Shown here: positions 559 through 64,000 of the stretch, in pieces
Layout: every line of letters starts with the position of its first letter
Numbering within the stretch: the stretch's first letter is position 1
Translations under genes and position numbers: made by a program
The notes under the pieces: model-generated
What the model was told of the DNA's origin: nothing
Seen by the model: the letters and a program-made list of their open reading frames with translations, nothing else
Databases searched by the model: none
NCBI GenBank assembly: GCA_028716045.1
Contig: JAQUQO010000001.1
Span: forward strand, 528,897-592,896
DNA: 64,000 nt
Origin: Patescibacteria group bacterium
GTDB taxonomy: Bacteria; Patescibacteriota; Patescibacteriia; JAQUQO01
Direction: 5' to 3'

Positions 559-702
559 TAATAGTTAAAAAGAGTATATTTTAACCCCTTTAAATAGTCT
601 CTTTACCTCACTTTAGCGGGCCAAACACGAGTTGACTAAAGTCGGGTAAGCAGATTATTCTGCTGTTTGAAAACAAAAAAATTAATTTACAAGGAGATAA
701 AG

Positions 703-3700
703 ATGAAAAGGATGAAAAGTAATTTTTGGTTGATTTTGGTGTTGCTCGCGCCCTTGGGCTGCGGCAACGGAGAAAAGAGATCCTTCGCTGACGCTCAGGA
801 TGACAATGAGGGTGTCAGTGATGGTGGCGATGTTAACAACAATGACGACGATGACCCTTCGACAGACTCAGGGTCTGATGACGATGCTGGTGTTGAGCCG
901 TCAGACGGCGACGTCCCGATAGATGTCGGGGATGACGATGACGACACGACTTGCGTTCCGAGCAAAGAAATTTGCGACGGAAAGGACAATGACTGCGACG
1001 GCGATACTGACGAAGATTCGGCTTTGGAAATGGGATGTGACAACGACATTTTCTGCGACGGCGTTGAACAATGCCTTGGCGGATTTTGTGTCGTAGAAAT
1101 TGAACCCGAAGATTGCGCTCCTCTTTCGGACGAATGCAATGACGGCGTGTGCGATGAAGCCACCCGCGGTTGCCAAGCGGTTCCCAAAGAAAACGGGACA
1201 CTCTGCAACGCGGATTCTGATGGTTGCACCGAAAACGACTATTGCCAAGACGGTGATTGTCTATCCGGCAAAGCAGTGGATTGTTCGGGAGCGGTACCGG
1301 AAGAAGAAAAGCAATGCAACATCGGTGTCTGCTATTCTGCCGGAAACAATGAGTATGCTTGCGGCAAAGAATCTTTGCCCAACGAAACTCGTTGCGACGC
1401 GGATGGTGACGGCTGTACGGTCGGCGACACCTGCCAAGCCGGTGTCTGCGAAAAAGGACCGGCTCCGGATTGTTCCGAAGCTACGGATGCCTGCAACGCC
1501 GGAACTTGTTTCTCCGCTGGCTCGGAAACATATGAATGCGTTCCGACCCCCATGGAAGACCAAACTCCCTGCGACGCGGATGGTGACGGCTGCACAGTCG
1601 GCGACACCTGCCAAGCGGGAATTTGCGAGAAGGGTTTGCCGGCAGATTGCTCGGGTGTAAATACCCAATGCAAAACCGGTATCTGTATTTCCCAAGGTCA
1701 GGACAAATTCGTCTGCTCCTCTACGTCCAAGAACAACGGCGCGGCCTGTTTGGATAACGACGGCTGCACAGTCGGCGACAACTGCCAAGCGGGAATTTGC
1801 GTGGCGGGAACACCGGCTGACTGCTCGACGTTCACCAATCAGTGCAATGACGGCGTTTGCGAGGAAACGGCTGACCACGTTAACTTTAATTGCGTGGCTC
1901 AATCTAAACCCAACAACACCGCTTGCAATGCGGACTCTAACGGCTGTACAGTCGGCGACACCTGCCAAAACGGGAGTTGCCAAGCCGGAGCGAGCCGCGA
2001 TTGTTCCAAAAAGACCGACGATTGCAATCGCGGTATCTGTGTAGAGGACAGTTCAACTTCATCACACTGCGCGGCTAAGCCGAGGTCTAATGGAACTTCC
2101 TGTGAAGACGGCCAATACTGCACGGTCGGCGATTCCTGCCAAGACGGCGACTGCCAAGCCGGACCGGTGAAGGATTGCTCTCCTCTTTCGGACGAATGCA
2201 ACAACGGAGTGTGCGATGAAACGGCTGACAGTTGTGAAAAGTCGCCGATTAACGAAGGCGGCCTTTGCAATGACGGCGAGATTTGCACCACGACTTCTAC
2301 CTGCCAAAGCGGCGAGTGCAAGGGCGTAGATGACAAAGATGCCGATACTGACACTTTTATTGACAAGGATTGCGGCGGAACGGATTGCGACGACGGCGAC
2401 AACGGGATTTATCCCGGAGCGCTGGACACGGTGGGCGACGGCATTGACCAGAATTGCGACGGCCGAGACGGAGTGGACGCTGACAGCGATACTTATGCGA
2501 GTATCGCTTCCGGCGGAACGGATTGCGATGATGGCAACAACAGTATCCACCCTAACGCAGACGACAATGACACCGACGCGGTTGATGAAAACTGCGACGG
2601 CAAATTTGGCGGCGCGCTGGCGGGCGATGTTGATGCCGACGACTACGCGGCTTTGGGCACAGATGGAGTGACGGTGGTGGACTGCGATGATGATGAAGCT
2701 CTTGCCTATCCTAACAACCCGACCGATAAACTGGACAGTATTGACAACGACTGCGACGGCTGGGATGGGAAAAGTGAAAGCATAAGAGACATCGGCAGAA
2801 CCTACCTACAAATTTCCCTTGACTCCCAAGAAAAAATATGGATACTTGGCGGAAAATGGTTAAGCAACAACAAAGACGGAAATTGGGAAAATGAACAATG
2901 GAATCTAAATATGGCCAGTGATACAGATATGGCCCTTGACTCCTCTGACAACATCCATATTTCCTACCGTTGCGAGCAAGGGCTTTGCTACGCCAAAAGA
3001 GCGCCTGACGAAAGTTTGGAAACCACTATCATTGATAACGACGATCCGCAAACCGGTAAATCTACTTCCATCGCCCTAGACGACGACGGTTATCCACGGA
3101 TTTCTTACCGCGGATATAATGGCGACTTGCGGGAAGCGCGGTGGAACGGGGCAAACTGGGAAATACAAGTGGTACATGCCATTACAGACCTTGATAGAGG
3201 CACATCGCTTGTGATACAGAACAACTTAAGTCGTATTTCATACGAGAGAGTTGGCGCAACAGATGGATTGTGGTTGGCGGAAGAACAAAGTGATAGCAGT
3301 TGGGTTAAAAATAAAATTGACATCACTTATTCTGGTCTTTGGAGTTCAATGGCAGCGGATTCCGGCGGAAAACTCCATATTTCTTCCGGCTATTTCACGG
3401 CTAGCGGTTGGTCTCTTCGTATAACCACCAACGCCAGCGGGGATTGGGCGGGCGAACACGTTGATTTCAATGCCGATTATCCTCGCGGCTGGGCAACCTC
3501 AATGGCCGTGGATTCTAATGGGAAAAGACATGTGTTGTATCTCGCATTCGAAGAGCATAGGGTAATCTATGCTACCGACAAATCCGGAAGTTGGGTCTTA
3601 AGCGTCATCGGAGAATACAAAGATGGTGAAGAAGCTAATTTCATTACAGCCATAACGATTAACTCCGGTAACGAAATCCACGCCGTCTATTTCGGCGACA

Positions 3701-3744
3701 CAGCCCTTGGCGGCCCCTGCGACGGCCTGTGCTATGTGAAGTAA
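703..3744 (+). CDS. large secreted Cys/Asp-rich repeat protein (MopE-like metal-binding motifs; beta-propeller-like C-terminus)
   Basis: ATG 703 with AAGGAG RBS (track start 667 is a TTG). Lipoprotein-like signal LAPLGC. ~9 tandem CxADxDGCTVGDxCQAGxC modules. DCDDGDN..YPGA..CDGxDNDCDG MopE-type motifs. C-terminal ~45-aa repeats ending ISY/HISSGY. Confidence 0.85.
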   Translation: MKRMKSNFWLILVLLAPLGCGNGEKRSFADAQDDNEGVSDGGDVNNNDDDDPSTDSGSDDDAGVEPSDGDVPIDVGDDDDDTTCVPSKEICDGKDNDCDGDTDEDSALEMGCDNDIFCDGVEQCLGGFCVVEIEPEDCAPLSDECNDGVCDEATRGCQAVPKENGTLCNADSDGCTENDYCQDGDCLSGKAVDCSGAVPEEEKQCNIGVCYSAGNNEYACGKESLPNETRCDADGDGCTVGDTCQAGVCEKGPAPDCSEATDACNAGTCFSAGSETYECVPTPMEDQTPCDADGDGCTVGDTCQAGICEKGLPADCSGVNTQCKTGICISQGQDKFVCSSTSKNNGAACLDNDGCTVGDNCQAGICVAGTPADCSTFTNQCNDGVCEETADHVNFNCVAQSKPNNTACNADSNGCTVGDTCQNGSCQAGASRDCSKKTDDCNRGICVEDSSTSSHCAAKPRSNGTSCEDGQYCTVGDSCQDGDCQAGPVKDCSPLSDECNNGVCDETADSCEKSPINEGGLCNDGEICTTTSTCQSGECKGVDDKDADTDTFIDKDCGGTDCDDGDNGIYPGALDTVGDGIDQNCDGRDGVDADSDTYASIASGGTDCDDGNNSIHPNADDNDTDAVDENCDGKFGGALAGDVDADDYAALGTDGVTVVDCDDDEALAYPNNPTDKLDSIDNDCDGWDGKSESIRDIGRTYLQISLDSQEKIWILGGKWLSNNKDGNWENEQWNLNMASDTDMALDSSDNIHISYRCEQGLCYAKRAPDESLETTIIDNDDPQTGKSTSIALDDDGYPRISYRGYNGDLREARWNGANWEIQVVHAITDLDRGTSLVIQNNLSRISYERVGATDGLWLAEEQSDSSWVKNKIDITYSGLWSSMAADSGGKLHISSGYFTASGWSLRITTNASGDWAGEHVDFNADYPRGWATSMAVDSNGKRHVLYLAFEEHRVIYATDKSGSWVLSVIGEYKDGEEANFITAITINSGNEIHAVYFGDTALGGPCDGLCYVK

Positions 3745-3830: not shown

Positions 3831-3850
3831 ATTTGGGTTTTGATTTATAC

Positions 3851-3956
3851 AGAAACAATTCAGGCATTTGGTAGAGACGGGTTTAAAACCCGTCTCTACG
3901 GGGATACCGGGGGACGATAAAAGGATTGATGATTCGCATTATGTAGAGACCCCGCC
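3851..3956. repeat. composite repeat cassette copy 2
   Basis: Near-identical to 280-384; lies between convergent genes 703-3744 and 3971-7498. Confidence 0.8.
3871..3904. repeat. REP-like hairpin (identical to 300-332)
   Basis: GTAGAGACGGGTTTAAAACCCGTCTCTACGGGG. Confidence 0.8.
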
Positions 3957-3976: not shown

Positions 3977-6900
3977 ACTGCAGGTCATCACATTATCAGT
4001 TATCTCGCAGTTTCTTTTTATACTATTGTTGGCATTGCTATTTGAATCCATGTCAAACATATTTACTACTCCATCATTATCTCCATCTGAACCGCCCAAT
4101 AACACATTAACACATTGGTTTTGCCCCTCTATATTAACACATTTCCCGCCGACAAATTTACAGTCTCCATCTAAAAGGCACATTTTCCTTTCGCCCTCTT
4201 CCTCATAAGCGATTCCCTTACAATAAGGGTCGTCCATATTTGCCAAACCATTACCATCGTTATCAAATTTTCCATCAATACAATTTAATGTTCCCTCAAA
4301 ACAAGTATCGTCGCAAATCCCTTCTACTGGGAAACCAGTGGCCATTTTAGCGCTAAAGCCCACATCGCCAAGAAAATCACAGCGATAAACATTCGCCAGA
4401 TATTGACCAGCGCCGCCTGACATCTGCCAGCAATATTTTGCTCTTGTTTTATCACTCCCTTCCTCTCCTCCTTTTGTCCAAGTATTTCTGTGGACAAATA
4501 TCGGCTTTTGCGGAATCCCAATATCATCGCCATTAACCTTACATTCTTTCAAAAGCCAAAATGCTTCTTCATTTATTGAATCACCCGGCTGGACCGTGTA
4601 TTCCAAATTAGCTTTACCGTCTTCTTCTACACTACCGGAAACCAAGATGTTAGTTGTGCCCATACAAGATTCCCCTGTGGCGCAGTTATAATTGCCAAAA
4701 CAGATATTGCCAGAGATTTTCTCTCCGGTTTCTAACTCCTTCTCCGGACATCTCCCTGGAGTAATAACTTTACACTCCGCCATGCCCGAGGTGACTTTTA
4801 AATTCGCTAGTTTGACTGTAAAAGTATGCAAATGCGTGCCGGGCAAGGCCTGCCCGACATTCTCGCCGTCGCAATAAGCGTCGGTATTTTGGTAATCAGC
4901 ATAGCCATCGTCAACGCGCGCGCAATCCGTTCCACCACCTAAACAACACAACGGCTCAAAAATTCCTCCAGCCGGCGTCACGCGCACGGGCTCAAAACCA
5001 AAACTGGTTTTTATACCAACAAAACTACCAGCCACTGACGGCCCAAAATCAACCCAGCCAATATCCCACGGCGCCCATCCCCACCAGTAAAAATCTCCTT
5101 TGGAAATAAGAGGCTGTTCATTAATGGCAAAAGCCATTTTGGCGCCGTAAATCGGAGCGTCCAAATCCAGCGCCATCTTGCGCAAAGAAATCCAGCCCTC
5201 GCTGGCCGGATAAGCAATTACTTTCGCCCAGCCGCTGATATCGCCGATATTGGTATCGGCCTTGGCCGCAGCCGTCTGCGCTTCCGGAGTAGCGCCATAA
5301 TCAGCGCAGGTCGCGCCTACGCAAATCCAGCCCACGTTTTCGCTCCACATCCAGCCGGACAAAATTCCGTCCGCCGCGATTTTTACGCCATAAGCCGGAC
5401 CGGCGCAGGTATTGGTCGCCAAGTCGCAGTTATTAGCCGAAACCCAACCGACATTTTCGGACCACGCCCAGCCGTAAACATTGCCCTCGCAAGCGTCGCC
5501 CTGACCGTTGCCGTTGGAATCAATTTGTCTTTCCTGCCAGACACGCGGACAATTGTCGCTGATATCCAAAACACCGTCATTATCATAATCGCTGGTACCC
5601 ACGACAAAAAATGAAAAATGATTGATATTAAGCTCACAGACCAAATTCTCATTAAAGCAAACGGCCAGGCTTTCTCTCTGCCAAGTTCCATTGTTGTTCC
5701 AATAAATATCCGCCGAGTTATTAGCCAAAGAATATGGCAAACGGATAGTAACCGCCGAGGAAAAATTATTATCTCCGCCCTTGTGGAATTCGTAAATCTT
5801 ACTCAAGGGTGTTATGCCTTGCGCTTCCAAATTCGCCGGAACAGTTGTTTCGTAAATAGTGACTGTCGTGGCGCTCGCCAAAGCCCCGCTTGGGATATTG
5901 GCTTGCGCTCCGCCGGTAGTGCTTACTGCCCCGCCGGAAATTCTTATAACCGCCGACGCGCTTTCCTCGCCTGCGCAGGAATTGTTAAAATCGCCCGGAC
6001 AGGAATCGCAAACATCGCCAGAAGCGTCGGCGTCGGAATTAAGCTGGTCCGGATTGTAATTAGCCGGGCAATTATCAATGGTGTTATCTCTTAAATCGCC
6101 GTCGGTATCTAAATCGCAAAAATCCCCGAGCCCGTCATTGTCCGCGTCAGCTTGGTCGGGATTGGCGTTAAGTGGGCAGTTATCATTATTATTCAAAACG
6201 CCGTCATTGTCTTTATCAGTATCGCAGGCGTCGCCGGTGCCGTCGCTGTCATTATCAATCTGGTCAGGGTTATAAATATAGGGACAATTGTCAGCTGTGT
6301 TTAAACGGCCGTCGCTATCCCAGTCGGTGTCGCAAACATCGCCCTGACCATCATTGTCCGCGTCAGCTTGGTCGGGATTGGCAACGCTGGGGCAGTTGTC
6401 GCAGACGTCGCCATTACCATCGCCGTCAACATCAAGCTGATTGGCATTGGCGACAGCCGGGCAGTTGTCTCCGTTATCATCCACTCCGTCATTATCAGTA
6501 TCAGCAACTTCGCAGACATTACCAATACCATCGCCATCGGTATCGGCCTGGTCGGGGTTGGCGACTGAAGCGCAATTATCACAATTATTGCCAACACCGT
6601 CGCCATCGGCATCTTCCTGATTGGCGTTGGGATAATTGGGACAGTTATCGCAGACACTACCTCGGCCATCATTGTCCGCGTCAGCTTGGTCGGGATTGGC
6701 AATGCTGGGGCAGTTGTCGCAGGCGTCGCCGGTGCCGTCGCCGTCAACATCAAGTTGATTGGCATTGGCAACAGCAGGGCAGTTGTCTAAACTATCAGCC
6801 ACGCCATCACCATCCACATCTAAATAGTAGACCTCTATTTCATTCAAATAAGCGTAAGTTCCCGAATCCAAATCCGTCACTTTAAAATATCTGGCATTAA

Positions 6901-7608: not shown

Positions 7609-7639
7609 TAAAAAACCAGCTCCCGAGTTTGGGGGCTGG
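7609..7639 (-). terminator. rho-independent terminator for 3971-7498/7669-10008 unit boundary (minus strand)
   Basis: Hairpin CCAGCTCCCGAGTTTGGGGGCTGG with A6 upstream on plus = U-tract on minus; near-identical copy at 10332-10362. Confidence 0.65.
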
Positions 7640-7668
7640 TTTGGATTAGTTTTAACGCTTTTATACCC

Positions 7669-10331: not shown

Positions 10332-10362
10332 AAAAAACCAGCTCCCGAGTTCGGGGGCTGGT
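10332..10362 (-). terminator. rho-independent terminator (minus) after 10472-12787; near-identical to 7609-7639
   Basis: AAAAAAACCAGCTCCCGAGTTCGGGGGCTGG. Confidence 0.65.
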
Positions 10363-10471
10363 TTGGGGAGTTATTTTTCAACCTATTTTCCTACCAGTTC
10401 CTAAAAATAAAAAAACAAAAAAGCTTGAATTTTAGCAACTTGCTAAAAACTTTTGAGGTAAGTGTTTTGGG

Positions 10472-12787
10472 TTAGGGGCAGTCTGTCTCTAAAATTACTC
10501 CGCGACTGCGAAGCTCCGCTATGTTCACACCTTGAGCCGCACAATCAATGGGATTGTATCTTATGTCCACCTCATCGTCATTATCAATACCAGAATTGCT
10601 CACGAGCGGCGATATATCGCTTATTCGATTATAATCAAGCCAAAGCGTTGTCAGTGCAGTAAGGTTTGACAATGGTGAGATGTCGCTTACCCCGTTGCCC
10701 CAAAGGTCAAGTATTGTCAGTGCAGTAAGGTTTGACAATGGCGAAATATCGCCTACTTGGTTGACCCTAAGGTAAAGCGTTGTCAGCGCAGTGAGGGTTG
10801 ATAATGGTGAGATATCGCTTACCTCGTTGCCCCAAAGGTCAAGTATTGTCAGCGCAGTGAGGTTTGACAATGGCGAGATGTCGCTTATTTGGTTGTTCTT
10901 AAGGTCAAGATCTGTCAGCGCAGTGAGGTTTGACAATGGTGAGATGTCGCTTATTTGGTTGCCCCAAAGGTCAAGTATTGTCAGCGCAGTGAGGTTTGAC
11001 AATGGCGAAATATCGCCTACTTGGTTGACCCTAAGGTAAAGCATTGTCAGTGCAGTAAGGTTTGACAACGGCGAAATATTGCTTATCTGGTTGTCCCAAA
11101 GGTAAAGCATTGTCAGTGCAGTAAGGTTTGACAACGGCGAAATATCGCTTATTTGGTTGGACAGAAGATTAAGTGTTGTCAGCGCAGTGAGGTTTGACAA
11201 TGGCGAGATGTCGCTTATTTGGTTGTTCTTAAGGTCAAGATCTGTCAGCGCAGTAAGGTTTGACAACGGTGAGATGTCGCTTATTTGGTTGGACCAAAGG
11301 TTAAGCAATGTCAGTGCAGTAAGGCATTCTATTCCTCCAAGGTATTGGATATCTTTATCTCCAGCATCAAGAAATGTCCGGTCTTTAACGTCTAAATAAT
11401 AAATGCCGCCAGAAAGCTTGCCAATAGCGTCCCGCACCGCCCGCTCAAGGTTTGGATCAGTAAAACTTATGACACCTTTACATTGGTCTGGGATATCCTG
11501 TTCGCAGGTATACGATTGAATGTTGCAGAACTCGCCCGCGGGACAATCCGCATCATCCGTGCACTCCACACAAATATTTCCTATACAGTAAGCATCTCCT
11601 CCTACGCAGGTACCGCAACTTCCTCCGCAACCATCATCGCCACACTCTTTACCGGAACAATCCGGTTCCAAGGGAGCAACACTGCAATATAACCCCGCCG
11701 GATTTGCTTCGAGCAAGCAAATTACCTCCCCCGTGTTTTGGCACTCTCCTTCGCCCGCAACACACTCTTCACCAATACTGGGAATATCATTGTCTATTTT
11801 GCCATCGCAATCATTGTCTTTGCCGTCGCAGAGTTCCTCGCCCGGCGGCAAAGCAACAGCGTCGCAGACGATTGACTTTTTGTCTAGCGAACAGATGTAT
11901 TCACCCCAAACGCGGCAATCGCTTAAGCCGTCGCTGCATTGGTCGCCCTTGCCGACTTCTTGCGCAGTCGGAAGGAAACCATTGTCCGCCACCTCATCGC
12001 AGTCATTATCTTTTTCATCACACAGCTCCTCGGCCCCCGGATAAACGGTTTTATCCTTGTCATCGCAATCGCCGTTTTTGACAGTAACCCCATCTTCGTC
12101 TTCATCGCGGTCAGAGTATTTGGCGTTGTATTCGTCAATGAACTTTTTGCCGGCGGTAAACTTTCCTCCCCACGCTTTGCCCTTAGAATCAAAGTCAACG
12201 TCTTCGCCATATTTAGGTCCATAACCGAAGTAAACCCAACTATAATTATCATACTCATCTTTAGGAGCGGGTCCTTTGCGAATACCAAAATGAAGGTGAG
12301 GTTCATTGTCGCCATTTTCATCATCTAAAACGCCATTACAATAAGCCACCCTACCATGAGGTGGCTTACCTCCGCTATGCCCCACATAACCAATAATTTC
12401 TCCTTTTTTGACAACCCCGCTTAACCTTGGTTTATATCCTTCGCGATTTGTCATATGGCCATATACTGAAGTTATTTTACCCCCATCCAGCAATGTATGC
12501 TCTACCACCACGACCATGCCATAACAAGTATGAGCTCCAGAGACAATACCCGTGATAATTTTCCCATTGCCAATTGCTCTCACGGGAGTTAAGGGTGATC
12601 TTTTGTCATCTTCGCCCAAATGTCGAGGCCAGCAACATCCAAAAACACGACCAAAGAATGAACCAGGATCATAGTTCGATAAAGGATATCCCAAACTGTC
12701 TGTTATTTCCGGTTCTTCAGAATAAGTATTTTTGGTATAACCGTAAACAGCAAAAAAAACAATTCCAATCAATATCAACCTTTTCAT
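10472..12787 (-). CDS. secreted multidomain protein: M23 peptidase domain + MopE-like Cys-rich modules + ~11 internalin-like 22-aa leucine-rich repeats
   Basis: Signal peptide. M23 motifs (GHM..., GHSGG, PHLHFGIR). CDxKDNDCDE/CDGKDNDCDG motifs. Tandem LTALTxLxLxxNQISDISPLSNL repeats (periodic DNA 10640-11340). Confidence 0.85.
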   Translation of the reverse strand: MKRLILIGIVFFAVYGYTKNTYSEEPEITDSLGYPLSNYDPGSFFGRVFGCCWPRHLGEDDKRSPLTPVRAIGNGKIITGIVSGAHTCYGMVVVVEHTLLDGGKITSVYGHMTNREGYKPRLSGVVKKGEIIGYVGHSGGKPPHGRVAYCNGVLDDENGDNEPHLHFGIRKGPAPKDEYDNYSWVYFGYGPKYGEDVDFDSKGKAWGGKFTAGKKFIDEYNAKYSDRDEDEDGVTVKNGDCDDKDKTVYPGAEELCDEKDNDCDEVADNGFLPTAQEVGKGDQCSDGLSDCRVWGEYICSLDKKSIVCDAVALPPGEELCDGKDNDCDGKIDNDIPSIGEECVAGEGECQNTGEVICLLEANPAGLYCSVAPLEPDCSGKECGDDGCGGSCGTCVGGDAYCIGNICVECTDDADCPAGEFCNIQSYTCEQDIPDQCKGVISFTDPNLERAVRDAIGKLSGGIYYLDVKDRTFLDAGDKDIQYLGGIECLTALTLLNLWSNQISDISPLSNLTALTDLDLKNNQISDISPLSNLTALTTLNLLSNQISDISPLSNLTALTMLYLWDNQISNISPLSNLTALTMLYLRVNQVGDISPLSNLTALTILDLWGNQISDISPLSNLTALTDLDLKNNQISDISPLSNLTALTILDLWGNEVSDISPLSTLTALTTLYLRVNQVGDISPLSNLTALTILDLWGNGVSDISPLSNLTALTTLWLDYNRISDISPLVSNSGIDNDDEVDIRYNPIDCAAQGVNIAELRSRGVILETDCP

Positions 12788-22587: not shown

Positions 22588-24033
22588 CTATAAATTTCTT
22601 ACTTCCCTCACAAACTGGTCTCCGCGGTCAAATTCATTTATAAACAATCCGAAGCTGGCGGCGCCGGGAGATAATAAAACAATATCACCACGAGTAGCAA
22701 TCTCTTTCGCCCAACTGACAGCATCGCTCATTGTTAAAATTGGATACGGGATGCCTGCCGGCGGTTCGACTGAGCTCACCGAAGTCCGGCTAGGCAGGTC
22801 TGATTTTTGATATTTGATATTTTTTAACTCTTTTAATATCTTCTCGCTGGCATCGCCCTTAAATAAAATCACCGACTTGGTATATTTTTTAATATATCTC
22901 GCCAGCTCTTTAAAATCTAATTTTTTGTCCGCCCCGCCGGACAGCAGAATAATGTTTTTCTTTTTCCCGCCGAGCGCCTTCAGAGAAGTAATCGCGGCGT
23001 CCGGCGCGGTGGCCGTGGTATCATTGATATATTTCACTCCCCCGACTTCCCGCACGAGTTCCAAGCGGCTGGGTACGCCTTTAAAATTTTTAATCGCCGA
23101 GCGGATTATTTTAGCGGGTGCACCGGCGACTCCGGCCATCGCCACGGCCCCCAAAATATTTTCCAAATTATGTTCGCCGAGTAATTTTATTTCTCTCACC
23201 GGCAGGACTCTTGTCTCCTTGCCGTTATTTCTGAATTTTATCCAGCCATCGGGAGTAATAAAACTTCCGTTTTCACCGGCGAAATATTTTTTAGAAAACC
23301 AGAACCGGCGCGATAAAACTTCCCGGCCCATGGCTAAAGTATGGCGATTGTCGCGGTTTAAAATAACGCTGTCGTCGGGAGTTTGAAAAGTATAAACAAG
23401 CTTCTTGGCTGATTTATAATCCTCCAAATCCTTGTAACGATTCAAATGGTCGGGAAAGATATTGGTGATTAGAGAAATTCGCGGACTGCGTTTGATGCGC
23501 GCCAGGCCTTCAAGCTGCCAGGAGGAAAGTTCCAAAACAACCGGCGTGTCCGCCGCGATTTTATCTAAATCATCCAACGGCGATTTGCGGATATTGCCCG
23601 CCACTACGGTTTTTTTATCCAACTTTTTGAAAATCTCTCCGGCTAAGACCGTGGTCGTGGTCTTGCCCTTGGTGCCGGTAATGCCAAAAATCGGGGCGGG
23701 GCAATATTCAAAAAAAATACTGACATCCGTGGCAATGGGCACGCCGTTTTGTTCGGCGATTTTTAAAAATTTTGATTCCCGCGGCACGCCGGGATTTTGA
23801 ATAATCAAATCGGTATTTTTAAAATCAGCTTCGGGGTGTTTTCCTAAAACAAATTTAACTTTTAAGCCCCGCAGTAAAGCGATTGATTTTTGAAGCTGCT
23901 TTCTTGTTTTAAGGTCAGTGACTAAAACCTTGGCGCCGTGGCGAATAAGCCACCGTGTTACTCCCACCCCGCCGCCATGAAGACCAAGCCCCATGACCGT
24001 GACGCGCCTTCCTTTAAATTCGCTGATTTTCAT
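22588..24033 (-). CDS. murD: UDP-N-acetylmuramoylalanine--D-glutamate ligase MurD
   Basis: N-terminal Rossmann VTVMGLGLHGGG, GITGTKGKTTT, 481 aa. Confidence 0.85.
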   Translation of the reverse strand: MKISEFKGRRVTVMGLGLHGGGVGVTRWLIRHGAKVLVTDLKTRKQLQKSIALLRGLKVKFVLGKHPEADFKNTDLIIQNPGVPRESKFLKIAEQNGVPIATDVSIFFEYCPAPIFGITGTKGKTTTTVLAGEIFKKLDKKTVVAGNIRKSPLDDLDKIAADTPVVLELSSWQLEGLARIKRSPRISLITNIFPDHLNRYKDLEDYKSAKKLVYTFQTPDDSVILNRDNRHTLAMGREVLSRRFWFSKKYFAGENGSFITPDGWIKFRNNGKETRVLPVREIKLLGEHNLENILGAVAMAGVAGAPAKIIRSAIKNFKGVPSRLELVREVGGVKYINDTTATAPDAAITSLKALGGKKKNIILLSGGADKKLDFKELARYIKKYTKSVILFKGDASEKILKELKNIKYQKSDLPSRTSVSSVEPPAGIPYPILTMSDAVSWAKEIATRGDIVLLSPGAASFGLFINEFDRGDQFVREVRNL

Positions 24034-43075: not shown

Positions 43076-43804
43076 CTATTTTTTATTTTTTTCTCTTTCG
43101 GCCGCCAGCTCCGCGGCTTTGAGCAAACTGTCAAAACTTTCACCGCCATCTCCCCACCAGCCCGTAAGTTTGGAAAAGGTCATGGTCCCCTGCTTGACGT
43201 AAAAATTATTGACGTCTGTAATTTCCAATTCCCCCCGGCCCGAGGGCTTGAGGGTTTTAATCACTTCCCAAACCTGATTGTCATACATATATAGTCCGAT
43301 GACCGCCAAATTGCTCTTGGGCTCGGCCGGCTTTTCCACTATACTGACAATTTTGTCTCCGTTTACTTCCGCTACGCCAAACGATTTTGGATTCTCCACT
43401 TCTTTCAAAAATATCTTGGCGCCCTTCTCTCGTCTGGCAAAATCGTCCACTGCTTCCTTGATATTATCCTCTAAGATATTATCGCCCAGCATTACCACGA
43501 TTTTATCGTTATCGGCAAAATCATCGCACAACCCGAGCGCCTGGGCGATGCCGCCCGGCTTTTCCTGCACGCCATAGGAGAACCTCGCGCCGAATTCCTC
43601 GCCGGAACGGAGTAATTCTAAAAAGTGCCCCGCGTGTCCTTTGCCCGAGACAATCATAATATCTTTGATTCCGGCGCTAACCAAAGTTTCAATCGGATAA
43701 TAAATCATGGGCTTATCATAAACCGGCAATAAGTGCTTATTAGTGACATAAGTTAACGGCCGCAACCGCGTCCCCTCGCCTCCTGCGAGTATGATGCCTT
43801 TCAT
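43076..43804 (-). CDS. rfbA: glucose-1-phosphate thymidylyltransferase (RmlA)
   Basis: MKGIILAGGEGTRLRPLT start at internal Met; ORF extends to 43909. Confidence 0.8.
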   Translation of the reverse strand: MKGIILAGGEGTRLRPLTYVTNKHLLPVYDKPMIYYPIETLVSAGIKDIMIVSGKGHAGHFLELLRSGEEFGARFSYGVQEKPGGIAQALGLCDDFADNDKIVVMLGDNILEDNIKEAVDDFARREKGAKIFLKEVENPKSFGVAEVNGDKIVSIVEKPAEPKSNLAVIGLYMYDNQVWEVIKTLKPSGRGELEITDVNNFYVKQGTMTFSKLTGWWGDGGESFDSLLKAAELAAEREKNKK

Positions 43805-43845
43805 AGGATATAAAATTATTTTACTCTTTGAATTTTTATTTAAAT

Positions 43846-44364
43846 CTAATGGAGAATAATCGCCAAAATAACTACAAAAATTAACACAACCACTCCAGCG
43901 GATATCCAAAGCCGTAAAATTTTTTTATTAGTTTCAGTCGCCCTTTGTTTCCTTTCTGCATCGCTTAAACGGATTGGCGGTTGTTTTTCTCCTAAAATTA
44001 TTTTAAGAGGGTCTGTTATCAACGGATAAAACCATAACCAACTAAGTGGAGCAAAAACCATACACCACAAAGCGTTCGCTTTCGATAATTTTTCCGCTTT
44101 TAATACCTTTGTGCAAAAATAGATAAAATATACCAAAAACCCTATATAGAGAATAAAAAATATAACGACTAATTCGCTTTCGGATTCGCTTAAACCACGT
44201 AAAACGATACTACCAACAAATGCTATCCAAAACAATACCTTTAATCGGTTTAAATATTCTCTTGCCTGTTCTGTATGTTTTATGTCCGTTCTTGCTAAAT
44301 ATTTTTCTGCGATCTCTCTTGAATTATTTGACTCGATTTCTTTCATTCTATTATATTGCTCCAT
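43846..44364 (-). CDS. membrane protein, unknown (172 aa)
   Basis: 4 TMs. Confidence 0.45.
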   Translation of the reverse strand: MEQYNRMKEIESNNSREIAEKYLARTDIKHTEQAREYLNRLKVLFWIAFVGSIVLRGLSESESELVVIFFILYIGFLVYFIYFCTKVLKAEKLSKANALWCMVFAPLSWLWFYPLITDPLKIILGEKQPPIRLSDAERKQRATETNKKILRLWISAGVVVLIFVVILAIILH

Positions 44365-44497
44365 ACATTTAATATTTTATATATTTATAAATCAATGGCC
44401 TATTCTTTACAATTTTATCTTAAAAAATTCTTCTACTAATAAATTTTATTTATTCCAAATACTCCCCCAACGCTTCTTGCCACCTCCTTATCTATTT

Positions 44498-44619
44498 TGT
44501 CTTTGCGACCCCGAGATTGACTTCGGCGAGCTCAGTCGAGCCGTCGAGGGGGAAGCAATCTCTATAATACGCGTAGATTGCTTCGTCGTCCCGAATTCTA
44601 GGGACTCCTCGCAATGACA
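44498..44619. mobile_element. 122-bp MITE-like element copy 1 (11-bp TIR TGTCTTTGCGA...TCGCAATGACA) abutting rfbD stop codon
   Basis: ~95-bp core near-identical to 45470-45592; internal 10-bp-stem hairpin GAAGCAATCT...AGATTGCTTC. Confidence 0.55.
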
Positions 44620-45462
44620 TTATTGTTTTAAATACTCCCTCAATGCCTCCCTCCAACTCCTCATCTCCGGCAATTTGGTGTTTAACAAAACAGAAAATTT
44701 GGGACGGCGGGCGAGGCGGGGAAATTTATCGGAATTGACCGGTTCAACTTTTATATCTATATTTTTTATTTTAAAAATCTCTTTGGCAAATTCGTACCAC
44801 GTGCAGGCATCGTCGTTTGTCGCGTGATAAATACCCCACGGATAACCACCATCAACTATTTCTTTCGTCCTCTTCGCTAAATCTAAAGCATAAGTGGGAC
44901 TGGCATATTCCTCGTCAACGACTTCCAGCTTATCACGCTCCCCTGCCAATTGCAACATTAAATCAACAAAACTTTTCTTGGCCTCGGCGCTGGAAGCGGG
45001 ATTGCCGAATAATTTACAAGTACGCAAAATATAGTATCTATCACCATATTTTTGAACCTCCCGTTCGCCCATCAATTTGCTCTCACCATATTTATTAACC
45101 GGACTCGGTTCGTCATTTTCCTTATATCCCTCCTCCTTACTGCCGTCAAAAACGTAATCACTGCTATAATGGACGAAAACAGAACCAACTTCTTTGGCTA
45201 TTTTTGCCAAATATCCCGGCGCCTCGCCATTTACTTTTTTAGCAATGGCAAATCCTTCTTCTTCCTCGCATTTATCAACGGCATTATAAGCCGCGGCGTT
45301 AATAATTAAATCAGGTGTTAATTTTGTAATCTTTTCTCGCGCTTGCTTTTCATCGGTGATATCAATTTCTTCTCTATCCCATAAAAAAAGTTCCTCGCCG
45401 GAAAAAACTTCCGCCAAGTACTGCCCCAGCATTCCTTTCGCGCCGATGATTAGTATTTTCAT
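44620..45462 (-). CDS. rfbD: dTDP-4-dehydrorhamnose reductase (RmlD)
   Basis: MKILIIGAKGMLG Rossmann; YxxxK; 280 aa. Confidence 0.8.
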   Translation of the reverse strand: MKILIIGAKGMLGQYLAEVFSGEELFLWDREEIDITDEKQAREKITKLTPDLIINAAAYNAVDKCEEEEGFAIAKKVNGEAPGYLAKIAKEVGSVFVHYSSDYVFDGSKEEGYKENDEPSPVNKYGESKLMGEREVQKYGDRYYILRTCKLFGNPASSAEAKKSFVDLMLQLAGERDKLEVVDEEYASPTYALDLAKRTKEIVDGGYPWGIYHATNDDACTWYEFAKEIFKIKNIDIKVEPVNSDKFPRLARRPKFSVLLNTKLPEMRSWREALREYLKQ

Positions 45463-45469
45463 AGTATTT

Positions 45470-45592
45470 TGTCATTGCGACCCCGAGCTTGACTTCGGCG
45501 AGCTCAGTCGAGTCGTCGAGGGGGAAGCAATCTCTAATACGTGTAGATTGCTTCGCTCATCTTCAACAAGTTCGGATTCGCTCGCAATGACA
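45470..45592. mobile_element. 123-bp MITE-like element copy 2 (perfect 11-bp TIR TGTCATTGCGA/TCGCAATGACA) 8 nt upstream of rfbD start
   Basis: Same orientation as copy 1; divergent ~30-nt segment near right end. Confidence 0.55.
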
Positions 45593-45623
45593 GATTATTA
45601 CAAATTATTATAGATATTTAAAC

Positions 45624-46172
45624 TCAACTATCTCCCTTGCCCAACGGCAAAAGTTCGCTATCATGTTCAGCTAAAGCAATCACAACTTCACCTCCACTTC
45701 TTTTACCCTCTCTTGCCATTAACGCCAAAGCGCCTGCCCGATGTATTCCTTCAATTAAAACTATTTCTCCATTATGGATAACGCCCGTTAACATTGTTTG
45801 AAAAGGAAAATTATTAATAATGTCTTTTATTTTATTATTAGCGGCAATTAATGGATGATTTATTATATCTGACAATCGTTTAGTAATAATTCCGCCATAA
45901 CATTTGGCAATCCAACTGCGTGTCGGCGTTCCGTAAAATTTTTCCACCTCCGCGATGTCATTTATGCGGTATATTTTCCATTTTTTCTCCTGCGGTTTCA
46001 ACGGGGCAACATAATTGGCTCTCCACTCATCCCAAGAGTTAAATCCTCTTTCTCTCCAATGCTTCTCCCAGCCTTTCTGATAAGCTTCGTAAACACGCCA
46101 CACCGCAAAAATATCCCGCCATTCAATATCGTGGACGTATTCTAAGGATTTATATTGCTCCGGGATTTTCAT
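45624..46172 (-). CDS. hypothetical protein (182 aa)
   Basis: Preceded by 5-codon uORF whose TGA overlaps ATG. Confidence 0.5.
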   Translation of the reverse strand: MKIPEQYKSLEYVHDIEWRDIFAVWRVYEAYQKGWEKHWRERGFNSWDEWRANYVAPLKPQEKKWKIYRINDIAEVEKFYGTPTRSWIAKCYGGIITKRLSDIINHPLIAANNKIKDIINNFPFQTMLTGVIHNGEIVLIEGIHRAGALALMAREGKRSGGEVVIALAEHDSELLPLGKGDS

Positions 46173-46209
46173 AAATAATTATTCATTACTCCCCTCCTTA
46201 GATAAGCTT

Positions 46210-46225
46210 GCCTACCGGCAGGCAG
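46210..46225. promoter_or_regulatory. second copy of palindromic motif TGCCTACCGGCAGGCA (15/16 match to 16584-16599)
   Basis: 38-53 nt upstream of 45624-46172 start. Confidence 0.35.
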
Positions 46226-46300
46226 GGAGGGGTTGGGGTGATTAGATATTTCAACTCCCACCCCCTCTGACTCCCCCTCGGGCAGGGGGAGAATATTAAC

Positions 46301-47029
46301 TTAAAAATATTTAAAATTAATCTTTCCTGTCTCTACCGTCTCTTTCACTCTCTCATAATCTTCCGGCGTACCCAAATCCGCCCAAAAGCCGTCGTGGATG
46401 AAACCGTAAATCGGCCTTCCTTCGCGCAACATTCCAAAATAGGCAGTGTCAATTACAGATGCCGGCTCTTTTTTCAGATAATCCAAAACTTGCGGCTCTA
46501 AAACATGGATTCCCGTGAACATATATTCTTCCGCCTCGTCCGTGTAACCGGATATTTCTTTGATGTCGCGGACTCTGCTTTCTTTATCGACTAAAATTTT
46601 TGGATACTGTTTATCTGAATCATTTTTTCGCAATACCATGGTTGCCAGCGCTTTTTTCTGCCGGTGGAAATCAACGACTCGGCGCAAATCAATATCAGCT
46701 AAAATATCGCTATTTATTACCACAAAAGTATCTTTGATTTTACCGATTTCTGCCGCTTGTTTTATCCCGCCGCCGGTGTCTAAAATTTCCTCTTCTTTGG
46801 AATAAACGATACACATTCCTAATTGTGAGCCATCGCCCAGCTCCCTTTTTATCAAATCACCTAAGTAATATAAATTGATAATAACGTCGGTAATGCTGGC
46901 GTTTTTTAAAAGTTTCAGCGAGTAATAAATAAGCGGCTGACCGTTAACCGGCAAAAGCGGTTTGGGAATTTTTTCTGTAAGTGGACGCAATCTCTCTCCC
47001 CGTCCCGCCGCCAAAACTATGGCTTGCAT
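46301..47029 (-). CDS. sugar-1-phosphate nucleotidylyltransferase (NTP_transferase family)
   Basis: MQAIVLAAGRGERLRPLT start at internal Met with GGAGG RBS; ORF extends to 47101. Confidence 0.7.
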   Translation of the reverse strand: MQAIVLAAGRGERLRPLTEKIPKPLLPVNGQPLIYYSLKLLKNASITDVIINLYYLGDLIKRELGDGSQLGMCIVYSKEEEILDTGGGIKQAAEIGKIKDTFVVINSDILADIDLRRVVDFHRQKKALATMVLRKNDSDKQYPKILVDKESRVRDIKEISGYTDEAEEYMFTGIHVLEPQVLDYLKKEPASVIDTAYFGMLREGRPIYGFIHDGFWADLGTPEDYERVKETVETGKINFKYF

Positions 47030-47030
47030 T

Positions 47031-48038
47031 TTATCCTCCGTATTGTTTTTTATAATAATTCTGATACTCGCCGGATTTGATATTCCCCCACCATGATTCA
47101 TGGGTTTTATACCATTCTACCGTTTCTTTAAGTCCGGTTTCAAAATCTACCCGCGGCTCCCAGCCCAGTTCGTTTTTAATTTTGGAAAAATCAACGGCGT
47201 AGCGGCGGTCGTGGCCCGGACGGTCTTTAACATACTCAATCATTTCTTCGCCATAGCCCATTAATTCTAAAATTTTCTTGGTAATTTCTATACCGGATTT
47301 TTCGCTATCCCCCCCCAGACAGTAGGTCTCGCCAATTTTCCCTTGATGTAAAATCAAATCCACTCCACGATTATGGTCATCTACGTAAATCCAATCGCGG
47401 ACATTAAGCCCATCGCCATAAACTGGAACTTTTTTGCCCTCAATTAAATTGGTGACGAACAAAGGAATAACTTTTTCCGGGAATTGATAAGGACCATAAC
47501 TATTTGAACAATGGGAGATGGTAATGGGCAAAGCGTGCGTGTGAAAATATGACCTGACCAAATGGTCCGCCGCCGCTTTGCTTGCCGAATAAGGGCTGCG
47601 CGGGTCATAGGGCGTTTTTTCATTAAATTTTTTAGGCGAATCAAGCTCTAAACTGCCAAAAACCTCATCGGTGGAAATATGATGAAATCTTTTTCTGCTA
47701 TTAATCCTCGCTGCTTCCAGTAAAACCTGTGTGCCCAATACATTGGTTTTTACAAACTCTCCCGAATCAATAATTGAACGGTCCACGTGCGACTCGGCGG
47801 CAAAGTGGACAATGGCATCGCAATCCTTAACTAGTTCATTTACTAAATCGGCGTCTCCAATATCGCCCTTAACAAATTCATAATTAGGATTTTTTTCAAC
47901 TGCCGTTAAATTTTCCAAATTCCCGGCATACGTCAATTTATCCAGATTGATAATCTTATAATCAGGATGGTTCTTGAAAATGTGGTGGATAAAATTGGAG
48001 CCAATAAACCCCGCTCCTCCGGTAACGAGTATTTTCAT
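47031..48038 (-). CDS. rfbB: dTDP-glucose 4,6-dehydratase (RmlB)
   Basis: GGAGFIGSNF, YxxxK, IYVDDH; 335 aa. Confidence 0.85.
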   Translation of the reverse strand: MKILVTGGAGFIGSNFIHHIFKNHPDYKIINLDKLTYAGNLENLTAVEKNPNYEFVKGDIGDADLVNELVKDCDAIVHFAAESHVDRSIIDSGEFVKTNVLGTQVLLEAARINSRKRFHHISTDEVFGSLELDSPKKFNEKTPYDPRSPYSASKAAADHLVRSYFHTHALPITISHCSNSYGPYQFPEKVIPLFVTNLIEGKKVPVYGDGLNVRDWIYVDDHNRGVDLILHQGKIGETYCLGGDSEKSGIEITKKILELMGYGEEMIEYVKDRPGHDRRYAVDFSKIKNELGWEPRVDFETGLKETVEWYKTHESWWGNIKSGEYQNYYKKQYGG

Positions 48039-62855: not shown

Positions 62856-64000
62856 TTATTTCAACACGCTGGCATTCAGCCCGCCTCTAAGTTTCTGGTC
62901 AAAAGCAAAAAATTGCCACAAAACTTCCCCGCCGCCATTAAAAATTCTTACCTGCGGACCGCCTTTGCTCGCCGGCGCGGCGATAATTTCATCCTGGCCA
63001 TCGCCATTTAAATCTCCGGCGGATAAATTAACCCCGCCGCGGAAAGATTCGCTAAAAGCCAGAAATTTTTTCAAAAGTTCTCCGCGGCTGTTAAAAATTC
63101 TTACTTCGGGAACATTATCTGAGTCCGAGGCGACGATTATTTCTTTCACACCATCACCGTTAATATCTCCTACGGAAACATTTAACCCGCCGCGGAAACT
63201 TTTAGTTAAAGCTAAAAAATTCCCCAGCGCTTTCCCGTTGCTGTCAAAAATTTTTACCTCTGCGCTACTCTTACTCGCCGGCGCGGCGATAATTTCATCC
63301 TGGCCATCGCCATTTAAATCTCCGGCGGATAAATTAACCCCGCCGCGGAAAGATTCGCTAAAAGCCAGAAATTTTTTCAAAAGTTCTCCGCGGCTGTTAA
63401 AAATTCTTACTTCGGGAACATTATCCGAAGCCGGCGCGGTAATGATTTCCTCACCGCTATCCCCCAAACAATCGCCCACAGCGATACTGACACCGCCGCG
63501 AAAGGACTCGCGATAAGCCATAAACTGACCAAGAAGCTGACCGCTCTCACTAAAAATTCTCACCTGTGGGCCGCCGGAAGAAGCGACCGCCGCGACTATT
63601 TCCCTGGCGCCGTTAGCATCCAAATCTCCGCTGGCTATATTTATCCCGCCTTTGAAATTTACTAAAACCGGCCATTCTTTTATTACTCCACTGTTTTGAA
63701 AAAACTTAACATCCGCGGGAAACCCTTGCTCCCCGGAAACAAGCAATTTAATTTCATCTTTCCATTGGGCCGGTTCCGGAGCAATCGCCGGAGCCATTGC
63801 TTCCTCGTTGTTCTCCTGTGCCATAGCTAAAAAAATTTTTTCCGTATTTAATCTCCCCTTGCCCAGCTTACCGACATAGAAAGGATTTTTATCGTCTATC
63901 GGTTGGCTGTTTTCCAAAATCAATTTGATAATTTTTTCTACGGAATAGTTTGGTTTAAAAGATTTTATTAAAGCGGCCGTGCCGGAAATAAGCGGGGTGG
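62856..64000 (-). CDS. partial (5' end beyond window) subtilisin-like S8 peptidase C-terminus fused to FG-GAP/VCBS-type repeats
   Basis: Reading frame open to 64000. LISGTAALIKS resembles the subtilase Ser-motif region. ~51-aa repeats GPQVRIFN..GDLNGDGQDEIIAAPAS. Confidence 0.65.
   Translation of the reverse strand, partial: TPLISGTAALIKSFKPNYSVEKIIKLILENSQPIDDKNPFYVGKLGKGRLNTEKIFLAMAQENNEEAMAPAIAPEPAQWKDEIKLLVSGEQGFPADVKFFQNSGVIKEWPVLVNFKGGINIASGDLDANGAREIVAAVASSGGPQVRIFSESGQLLGQFMAYRESFRGGVSIAVGDCLGDSGEEIITAPASDNVPEVRIFNSRGELLKKFLAFSESFRGGVNLSAGDLNGDGQDEIIAAPASKSSAEVKIFDSNGKALGNFLALTKSFRGGLNVSVGDINGDGVKEIIVASDSDNVPEVRIFNSRGELLKKFLAFSESFRGGVNLSAGDLNGDGQDEIIAAPASKGGPQVRIFNGGGEVLWQFFAFDQKLRGGLNASVLK

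Follow-up and report, generated by a model that had tools for sequence, protein, structure and literature searches.

Two palindromic, probably REP-type doublets beside rmlD in a Patescibacteria genome and the 24-nt hairpin unit nested in them

The DNA considered here is a stretch of 64,000 nt from a Patescibacteria group bacterium (contig JAQUQO010000001.1, positions 528,897 to 592,896), called the window below, whose minus strand carries a rhamnose (rml) operon with two related palindromic elements, copy 1 and copy 2, on either side of the gene rmlD, also named rfbD. Along this strand the order is rmlC-HIT-RF1-rmlB-rmlA'-ORF182-copy 2-rmlD-copy 1-relic-ORF172-rmlA'' (ORF, open reading frame). 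The product of rmlD matches Pfam RmlD_sub_bind with E = 7.7e-84, and hundreds of Patescibacteria homologues agree with this assignment. No family could be assigned to ORF182 or ORF172, and the latter bears no relation to the ORF found in the same place in L142, an 82% relative among the loci used for comparison. The stop codon of rmlD lies at 44620-44622, immediately beyond copy 1, and its ATG at 45460-45462, separated from copy 2 by a spacer of 7 nt (45463-45469). The two elements are 972 bp apart, share one orientation and have a GC content of 52-54%, against 42.7% for the window. Independent Logan assemblies of the same organism include copy 1 and break within copy 2.

An original prediction, made from the letters of the window alone, had described two co-oriented, transposon-like elements of 122 bp that exactly bracket rmlD, each with 11-bp terminal inverted repeats (TIRs) and an internal hairpin with a 10-bp stem. 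This geometry was borne out: the copies measure 122 and 123 nt, a single mismatch occurs in copy 1's left TIR, the inner stem GAAGCAATCT/AGATTGCTTC is free of mismatches in either copy, and both elements stand at the predicted ends of the gene. The TIR pair TGTCATTGCGA/TCGCAATGACA, allowing at most one mismatch, gives four matches in the 64 kb, against an expectation of about 0.84; none of 100 shuffled sequences attained that number. The predicted shared core of ~95 bp turned out not to be contiguous. The copies are alike over their first ~88 nt (96% identity, one 2-nt indel) and their last 12 nt, the ~22 nt preceding the right TIR being unrelated between them; on the left, the similarity runs 5 nt (TATTT) past the TIR.

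Each element is an inverted doublet of REP-type (repetitive extragenic palindromic) units of the form TGTC-ATTGCGAG...GCAAT-CTC (Table 1). Both ends of both copies carry the TGTC/GACA tag, the stem of each unit starts AT-first (TGTC-ATTGC...GCAAT-C), and an outer stem P1 (11-12 bp) together with an inner stem P2 (10-11 bp) joins the two units into one long hairpin of -47 to -59 kcal/mol. The plus strands of the two copies fold at -53.6 and -59.4 kcal/mol (z = -4.6 and -7.6 against shuffles) and the minus strands at -49.4 and -47.5 kcal/mol (z = -3.9 and -4.6). A second layer is the apical hairpin of one unit, CCCCGAG(A/C)TTG^TCGAGGGG, a variant of the hairpin-tip motif CCTGAGCYTGTCGAAGG that by itself occurs in at least 120 IMG/VR contigs, typically as ccgttcgcCCTGAGCYTGTCGAAGGgc; the tip of one unit is a hairpin of the widespread GAGCTTGTCGA type. 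The third layer is a 24-nt unit, ACTTCGGCGAGCTCAGTCGAGYCG, i.e. ACTTCGGCGAGCTCAGTCGAG(C/T)CG, placed at the caret in the loop of the apical hairpin. In the second unit of copy 2, the module GAACTTGTTGAAG, read directly from the sequence, agrees with the motif GAGCTTGTCGAAG at 11/13 positions.

Table 1. Coordinates of the elements, their parts and the associated features in the window
Feature	Position	Strand	Remarks
Copy 1, palindromic doublet, 122 nt	44498-44619	+	abuts the rmlD stop, on its 3' side in minus-strand (operon) reading
Copy 1 outer stem P1, 5' arm TGTCTTTGCGA	44498-44508	+	TGTC tag and AT-initiated stem start; one mismatch
Copy 1 P1 partner arm TCGCAATGACA	44609-44619		
Copy 1 apical hairpin of one REP unit, CCCCGAGATTG (24-nt unit) TCGAGGGG	44509-44551	+	
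Copy 1 nested 24-nt mini-hairpin unit ACTTCGGCGAGCTCAGTCGAGCCG	44520-44543	+	
Copy 1 inner stem P2 GAAGCAATCT / AGATTGCTTC, 13-nt loop	44552-44584	+	
rmlD, dTDP-4-dehydrorhamnose reductase	44620-45462	-	gene between copies 1 and 2
Copy 2, palindromic doublet, 123 nt	45470-45592	+	31 nt past the ORF182 stop, 7 nt ahead of the rmlD ATG
Copy 2 outer stem P1, 5' arm TGTCATTGCGA	45470-45480	+	partner arm 45582-45592
Copy 2 host hairpin CCCCGAGCTTG^TCGAGGGG	45481-45523	+	
Copy 2 nested 24-nt unit ACTTCGGCGAGCTCAGTCGAGTCG	45492-45515	+	within the host hairpin
Copy 2 inner stem P2 GAAGCAATCT / AGATTGCTTC, 11-nt loop	45524-45554	+	
Copy 2 apical module, second REP unit	45555-45581	+	unrelated to its copy 1 counterpart, 44585-44608
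Relic repeating the final ~47 nt of rmlD, IRRWQEALGEYLE and stop	44446-44493	-	beyond copy 1; live 3' end 44620-44666
9-nt direct duplication TATGAAAAT	45455-45463 and 46165-46173	-	flanks the insertion of ORF182 and copy 2
ORF182, conserved hypothetical protein of Patescibacteria	45624-46172	-	inserted segment, together with copy 2
In-frame 48-nt murD insertion DLPSRTSVSSVEPPAG	22753-22800	-	hairpin CCTGCC..GGCAGG; 24-nt unit 22762-22785

The doublets belong to a dispersed family. Its long form, TGTCATTGCGA N80-110 TCGCAATGACA, was found in 18 IMG/VR contigs and its short form, GTCATTGCGAG N35-65 CTCGCAATGAC, in at least 120. The family consensus reads (C/T)GTC-ATTGCGAG-variable small hairpin-(C)GAAGCAAT-CCAG, then a variable loop and CTGG-ATTGCTTCG-variable hairpin-CTCGCAAT-GAC(G/A), a plan to which the window copies conform exactly when read on the minus strand. 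Of 138 family elements, 92 have C and 40 have T as the base ahead of GTC. In each unit, a 5-bp basal stem leads through GAG/GAA mismatches into an apical hairpin that varies between 6 and 45 nt, and it is these apical hairpins that differ among family members. Members elsewhere are mostly solitary, not in arrays, and occur in genomic contexts of any sort. When ORFs were called crudely, the neighbours proved to be co-directional for 53 members, convergent for 20 and divergent for 8, and 39% are located at most 20 nt from the stop of the upstream ORF. The flanks of the 138 members revealed no target duplication, and a comparison of copy 2 with phage GenBank records returned no match.

Among known systems, the best fit is provided by the CGTC-tagged REPs, which include dRS3 of Neisseria and RPE-4/RPE-6 of Rickettsia (RPE, Rickettsia palindromic element) (PMC3733652; Di Nocera, De Gregorio & Rocco 2013, BMC Genomics 14:522). 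These repeats carry the tag CGTC, often TGTC (variant CCTC), their stems "almost invariably" open with two A-T pairs, and they end in a CCA tail; they occur chiefly as inverted dimers that can fold into one hairpin, heterodimers being common, and lie near ORF 3' ends between co-directional or convergent genes, with in-frame intragenic copies known for RPE-4/6 and dRS3 (PMC3733652). The window elements share with them the terminal tag, the AT-start, the inverted-dimer arrangement and the location at ORF 3' ends, as well as copies lying in frame within genes and the failure to find a dedicated transposase. They differ in several respects: the families CGTC-1 to -4 have stems of 8-9 bp and loops of 4-5 nt (PMC3733652), whereas the window unit has a 5-bp stem (ATTGC/GCAAT), an internal loop and a hypervariable apical hairpin, measures 29-55 nt, contains a nested mini-element and resides in a Patescibacteria host at low apparent copy number. 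The inner tail, CCA(G) in the family at large (consensus GCAATCCAG), is CTC and CTA in the window copies. The ATTGCGAG family is not among the supplementary sequences of PMC3733652 that were compared. We consider that the elements are probably non-autonomous, selfish palindromic repeats of the REP/REPIN-like type (REPIN, REP doublet forming a hairpin) rather than a regulatory device dedicated to rmlD, and that they form a new family, or a variant, within the CGTC/TGTC-tagged kind.

Two better-known categories were also considered. Like classical MITEs (miniature transposable elements with inverted repeats), the category to which the original prediction had likened them, the window elements are small, non-coding and intergenic with 11-bp TIRs. 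The non-autonomous repeat family it had proposed is supported by the IMG/VR contigs; the MITE label is not. Classical MITEs are derived from insertion sequences (IS) and combine TIRs with a target-site duplication (TSD), whereas no short TSD was found here (at most TT at copy 1, nil at copy 2), no IS or transposase with matching ends was present among the called genes within +/-10 kb, and what look like TIRs are the feet, with their tags, of two REP-type units. The cognate transposase that the original prediction had proposed to look for was accordingly missing from this interval. REPINs resemble the window elements as inverted REP doublets forming a hairpin, non-autonomous and without target duplication, and the 24-nt unit itself sits in the loop of a GTAG REP in the locus L036 described below. 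They are said to be mobilised by RAYTs (REP-associated tyrosine transposases), as reportedly set out by Bertels & Rainey 2011, Nunvar 2010 and Quentin 2018. In the REPIN/RAYT system, a GT[AG]G tetranucleotide lies 0-2 nt 5' of the hairpin foot and the RAYT-associated REPs are species-specific (PMC6006769). The window elements are tagged with TGTC instead, have no repeat-flanked RAYT and consist of sequences that recur across phyla; a RAYT-type REPIN was rejected, since the GT[AG]G tag is missing and the window contains no Y1 gene. A literature search with the DNA strings of the repeats and with peptides translated from them retrieved primers and noise only.

The nested 24-nt unit has a distribution of its own. 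A scan with the pattern ACTTCGGYGAGCTCAGTCGA, one genome per species, recovered it from at least 120 genome contigs in about ten phyla, including Planctomycetota, Chloroflexota, Bdellovibrionota, Latescibacterota, Verrucomicrobiota, Desulfobacterota, Nitrospinota/Nitrospirota, Acidobacteriota and Gemmatimonadota, and from one Asgard metagenome-assembled genome (MAG). Several MAGs gave two to five contigs with the unit among the matches listed, complete long-read chromosomes were included, and 17 IMG/VR contigs contain it. It is also held by plasmids of the cultured cyanobacteria Picosynechococcus PCC 7002, 8807 and 7117, where 30/30 nt are identical, including the TTG...TCG flanks. Since it is present in these plasmids and in long-read chromosomes, the unit is no artefact of metagenome assembly.

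Its borders are sharp. Across 138 occurrences, conservation drops to background right outside G|ACTTCGG...RYCG, at positions -2 and +24, while a G occupies position -1 in 136/138 and position +23 in 135/138. Positions Y9 and R22 covary (C-G 117, T-A 13, C.A 7, T.G 4), and position 23 is C or T facing G. This covariation supports a modelled hairpin CGGY-GA-G-CUCAGU-C-GA-RYCG with tandem G.A pairs and a hexaloop; the tip motif CCCU-GA-G-CUUGU-C-GA-AGGG has the same architecture. The frequency of G-U-compatible changes on one strand hints that this strand may matter, either as RNA or as single-stranded DNA.

The unit is a tiny insertion element in its own right. It is preferentially found between the arms of locus-specific stems, a perfect flanking host stem of at least 6 bp being present at 22/130 unit sites against 26/1220 control sites; the test was an anchored perfect-stem count, crossing pairs in 60-mer folds being uninformative in GC-rich loci. 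Its hosts comprise perfect palindromes (L012, L036) as well as terminator-like hairpins with a T-run (L101, L014). The two paralogous host repeats of L031 are distinguished by exactly one 24-nt unit, inserted at ACTTCGG^CGAG of the resident unit without any duplication. Insertion takes place directly 3' of a G and usually within the loop of a hairpin. The unit also inserts into itself, again without target duplication: four cases of AABB self-nesting were counted, and L083 contains a triple AAABBB nest. The locus L036 (1150-1900), from a Verrucomicrobia MAG, is a REPtron in which a RAYT-like gene (1287-1733) lies between GGTAGGGCGG... REPs, one of which, a GTAG REP at about 1731-1778, holds the 24-nt unit in its loop.

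A third relative in the window is partial, consisting of the 24-nt core only, and is situated inside a gene. It forms part of the 48-nt insertion in murD (22588-24033) listed in Table 1, which leaves the frame intact and adds 16 residues to a surface loop of an essential enzyme; these residues correspond to a gap in the 15 closest MurD homologues and in the PDB structure 3lk7. As a palindromic in-frame insertion it resembles the Rickettsia RPEs, from which it differs in sequence and host, and in being a small hairpin with a 24-nt unit where an RPE-1-type element spans 100-150 bp. A closer analogy may be drawn with the small dispersed repeats (SDRs) of Nostocaceae. As Elhai et al. 2008 (Genome Res 18:1484) reportedly described them, SDRs are hairpins of 21-27 nt with compensatory changes that nest in themselves and in mini-transposons; their families, SDR1-8, are said to lack recognisable features of transposition. 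The 24-nt unit falls within this size range and likewise has sharp borders, a covarying hairpin and the habit of nesting in itself and in other repeats, a likeness at the level of description. It differs in occurring in about ten phyla as well as in Picosynechococcus and in inserting in a hairpin loop 3' of a G. Membership of the SDRs was rejected, as a passage of PMC5861425 reports these as confined to Nostocaceae.

How such a unit might move can be proposed in outline. The 24-nt mini-hairpin has been inserted into an apical hairpin loop directly 3' of a G, and it lands in the loops of REPs, terminator-like hairpins, other repeats and its own copies or, in frame, in genes. We infer that spread proceeds through a single-stranded hairpin intermediate handled in trans by an enzyme that is not encoded nearby. 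HUH/Y1 enzymes recognise a hairpin and an adjacent short guide and leave no duplication, which makes a nuclease-ligase of this type the obvious candidate; it would be our best guess, its sole link to the present data being the REPtron of L036. In L144 (3943-4470), the gene of an IS200-like transposase of the Y1 type (Pfam Y1_Tnp, E = 3e-9) has been inserted between rmlC and the HIT gene; L143, otherwise identical, is without it, and L146 (1-306) has a Y1 homologue upstream of its rml genes. The Y1 genes of L144 and L146 are not flanked by the repeats of this study. A tblastn search with the L144 protein matched only L146 and L036 among 169 loci and found nothing below E = 0.6 in the window.

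Comparison with related rml loci clarifies how the elements came to flank rmlD. The original prediction had suggested examining whether relatives possess the gene without the elements, and such relatives were found: where RmlD is 71-74% identical, rmlB-rmlD-rmlA are tightly packed and element-free, and the 82% relative L296 has no such elements downstream of rmlD. In L142, the 5' untranslated region (UTR) and first 8 nt of rmlD match the upstream region and start of ORF182 (88% over 42 nt, E = 4e-10), and the L142 rmlD itself matches that of the window. The alignment places a ~701-nt segment, made up of the body of ORF182, 31 nt, copy 2 and AAATAC, as an insertion within the first codons of a resident rmlD, with L142 as the empty site. 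It follows that rmlD occupies its ancestral place and that its neighbour ORF182 and copy 2 were inserted. The layout also means that each element trails an ORF (copy 2 after ORF182, copy 1 after rmlD), the usual position of a REP. The idea that the elements isolate rmlD as a cassette, put forward in the original prediction, finds no support in the packed rmlB-rmlD-rmlA of the relatives, in the empty site or in the fact that the elements trail ORFs.

One element after each ORF, in the same orientation, also recalls gene cassettes recombining at attC-like sites, with ORF182-copy 2 and rmlD-copy 1 as the mobile units. The imperfect palindromes are of attC-like length, the segment of ORF182 and copy 2 is an insertion relative to L142, and ORF182 homologues occur in varied contexts. 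Against this, the ends TGTCATTGCGA/TCGCAATGACA (TGTCATT.../...AATGACA) have no RYYYAAC...GTTRRRY cores, the called genes with Pfam annotation within +/-10 kb include no integrase, rmlD is in ancestral synteny, family members are mostly single and not arrayed, and the ORF182 homologues elsewhere are without the element, showing downstream gaps of 20-28 nt in L289 and L290 and a different hairpin in L288. This last observation led us to discard ORF182 plus element as a cassette, and integron attC sites were rejected as well; recombination of this type is largely refuted and, in our estimation, highly improbable.

Both copies of the probable REP doublet stand at rearrangement junctions. Across copy 1, the last 47 nt of rmlD are duplicated with an in-frame stop codon included (alignment score 23, null 9.1 +/- 4.3), and the insertion of ORF182 and copy 2 is bordered by the 9-nt duplication. 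The 47-nt duplication is not read as a TSD of copy 1: L142 has a ~40-nt relic of the rmlD 3' end (1270-1309 against 1148-1187) around another element, a CGTC-tagged heterodimer GTCATTCCTGCGGAGGCAGGAATCC...CCCGCTTTCGCGGGGATGAC, while L296 and L295 have neither element nor relic. Signals are mixed as to whether the rmlD 3' relic is older than the divergence of the window genome and L142: the two relics have WQE and TTG in common, but codons are also shared between each relic and the live copy in the same genome. In L288 (3573-3720), downstream of the ORF182 homologue, a relic of the rmlB 5' end (ATGAAAGTTTTAGTCACAGGTGGAGCCGGATTTA, ~34 nt) precedes a GC-rich hairpin CCCGCCTCG...CGAGGCGGG, after which comes the real rmlB start. 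Gene-end duplications around GC-rich hairpins at rml loci hence measure 47, about 40, about 34 and 9 nt; if such variable lengths were a by-product of insertion, they would point to nick-and-fill or template switching rather than to a transposase with a fixed stagger.

The same junctions bear on a local explanation, in which one copy derives from the other by duplication or gene conversion inside this 1-kb stretch and the pair is a fossil of rearrangement. Only two full copies exist in the 72.7 kb examined; they are co-oriented and close to each other, and 96% identical over 88 nt with TATTT shared outside the TIR. The original prediction had named just this outcome, two copies without flanking duplications, as favouring a local duplication over mobility, and the copy number does leave room for a local origin of one copy. 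Duplication alone is insufficient, since ~22 nt of the second unit are wholly different; the flanks beyond TATTT are unrelated, the similarity around copy 2 being non-significant (p about 0.15), and the same family is plentiful and dispersed elsewhere. A local event is compatible with family membership and concerns only the source of the second copy. We regard it as a possible, though not the favoured, account.

The elements are necessarily transcribed with the minus-strand operon, as they lie between co-directional ORFs, and one may ask whether they are structured RNAs of that operon, the alternative offered in the original prediction, kept by selection as intercistronic stabiliser, processing or attenuator hairpins setting rmlD expression relative to that of its neighbours; an effect at the RNA level is conceivable. 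They fold with great stability (z = -3.9 to -7.6), both ends of rmlD in L142 likewise bear GC-rich hairpins, though of other families, L296 has a different inverted repeat upstream of the gene, and REPs close to ORF 3' ends are regarded as elements acting as RNA (PMC3733652). Copy 2 lies 7 nt from the ATG and leaves rmlD without a Shine-Dalgarno sequence, a placement that has been taken to imply an influence on initiation; some effect of copy 2 on rmlD translation is indeed likely on this reading of the sequence. Several observations argue against a dedicated RNA module. Rfam searches of the window at the gathering threshold, of 44350-45750 at E up to 10 and of 15 canonical-doublet loci returned only tRNAs and chance matches. 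Relatives carry elements of unrelated families at this site or none, showing that neither position nor sequence is conserved; the same elements occur elsewhere in any genomic context, and the 24-nt unit is antisense to the rml operon. Inspection revealed no T-run past either copy, so that copies 1 and 2 are not intrinsic terminators. Selection for such a function seems to us distinctly unlikely. REPs and bacterial interspersed mosaic elements (BIMEs) of E. coli act as passive stabilisers or processing barriers, and the hairpins of about -47 to -49 kcal/mol on the rml mRNA would likewise be at most passive 3'-end stabilisers or processing barriers.

Other structures surround rmlD in this clade. 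The first gene after rmlA' has a conserved leader (window 46165-46230, minus strand; L142 300-355), composed of a hairpin CCCCTCC...GGAGGGG, with the Shine-Dalgarno sequence as its 3' arm, and of a 5-codon upstream ORF after it, MNN(F/Y)L, which overlaps by its stop with the downstream ATG (ATGA). The window version of this leader now serves ORF182 in place of rmlD, and its hairpin loop contains an extra CTGCCTGCCGGTAGGCAAG mini-hairpin of the CCTGCC..GGCAGG type seen in murD. Upstream of rmlD, L142 (171-347) carries the hairpin modules CCCCCTTTTTCAAAGGGGG, TCTCCCTTTGAAAAAGGGAGA and CCCCTCCTTGTTTAAGGAGGGG, and L296 (735-812) an AT-rich inverted repeat with 17-bp arms. Palindromic insertions in this clade appear to have a hot spot in the intergenic spaces around rmlD. 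Two NTP_transferase (RmlA-like) paralogues, at 43076-43909 and 46301-47101, flank the rmlD region of the window, where more distant relatives have one.

Returning to the interpretation of the elements as selfish REP-type repeats, a number of facts weigh against it. No mobilising enzyme was identified and the window has no Y1 homologue; CGTC REPs, for their part, "apparently lack a dedicated transposase" (PMC3733652). The unit structure, a 5-bp stem with an internal loop under a variable apical hairpin, departs from the 8-9 bp stem and 4-5 nt loop described for CGTC-1 to -4, and the CTC/CTA ends are not CCA. With two full copies in 72.7 kb of an 812-kb contig, a high copy number in this genome is unproven, and one copy could be a local duplicate of the other. 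The combination of doublet and 24-nt unit is rare elsewhere: TIR plus unit was found at 6 metagenome loci (4 distinct) and in 0 viral contigs, a scarcity implying that the composite itself is not a propagating family. The orientation of the unit relative to transcription is inconsistent within this genome, antisense in the rml operon and sense in murD. Finally, near-identity of a 24-mer over phyla is unusual for a purely selfish repeat and could reflect a conserved host function.

The spread of the 24-nt unit is hard to explain by vertical descent, and we know of no enzyme for it. Together with the GAGCTTGTCGA hairpin tips it might represent the smallest known mobile element operating across phyla, a bold proposal that we think rather unlikely though worth stating. 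The 24-nt hairpin (stem CGGY/RYCG) would be copied into the loops of REPs, of terminator-like hairpins and of itself, and would also enter genes in frame, by an undescribed mechanism universal enough to maintain near-identity from Patescibacteria to Planctomycetota, cyanobacteria and an Asgard MAG. Picosynechococcus PCC 7002 is genetically tractable, and the mobility of the unit and its partner protein are directly testable there.

For the rml locus, the elements are ordinary REP-type passengers in typical positions and rmlD is no cassette. More generally, CGTC/TGTC REP doublets, earlier known mainly from Proteobacteria, are now found in a reduced Patescibacteria genome and in many IMG/VR contigs, where their apical hairpins behave as swappable modules. 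In practice, such modules yield spurious ORFs and break assemblies.

Further repeats were noticed elsewhere in the window. A GC-rich 90-nt repeat (94% identical) containing the hairpin GGTAGAGACGGGTTTAAAACCCGTCTCTACGGGG is present at 273-362 and 3844-3933, flanking a repeat-rich ORF (667-3744), and near-identical terminator-like hairpins, AAAAAACCAGCTCCCGAGTT(T/C)GGGGGCTGGTTTGG, are located at 7610-7644 and 10332-10366. Large ORFs contain long in-frame tandem repeats at 10542-11435 (period 66 nt, about 10 copies), 62902-63656 (153 nt, 4 copies), 1100-2220 (about 177 nt) and 5487-6814 (about 69 nt, Cys/Asp-rich units); they probably encode repetitive surface proteins.

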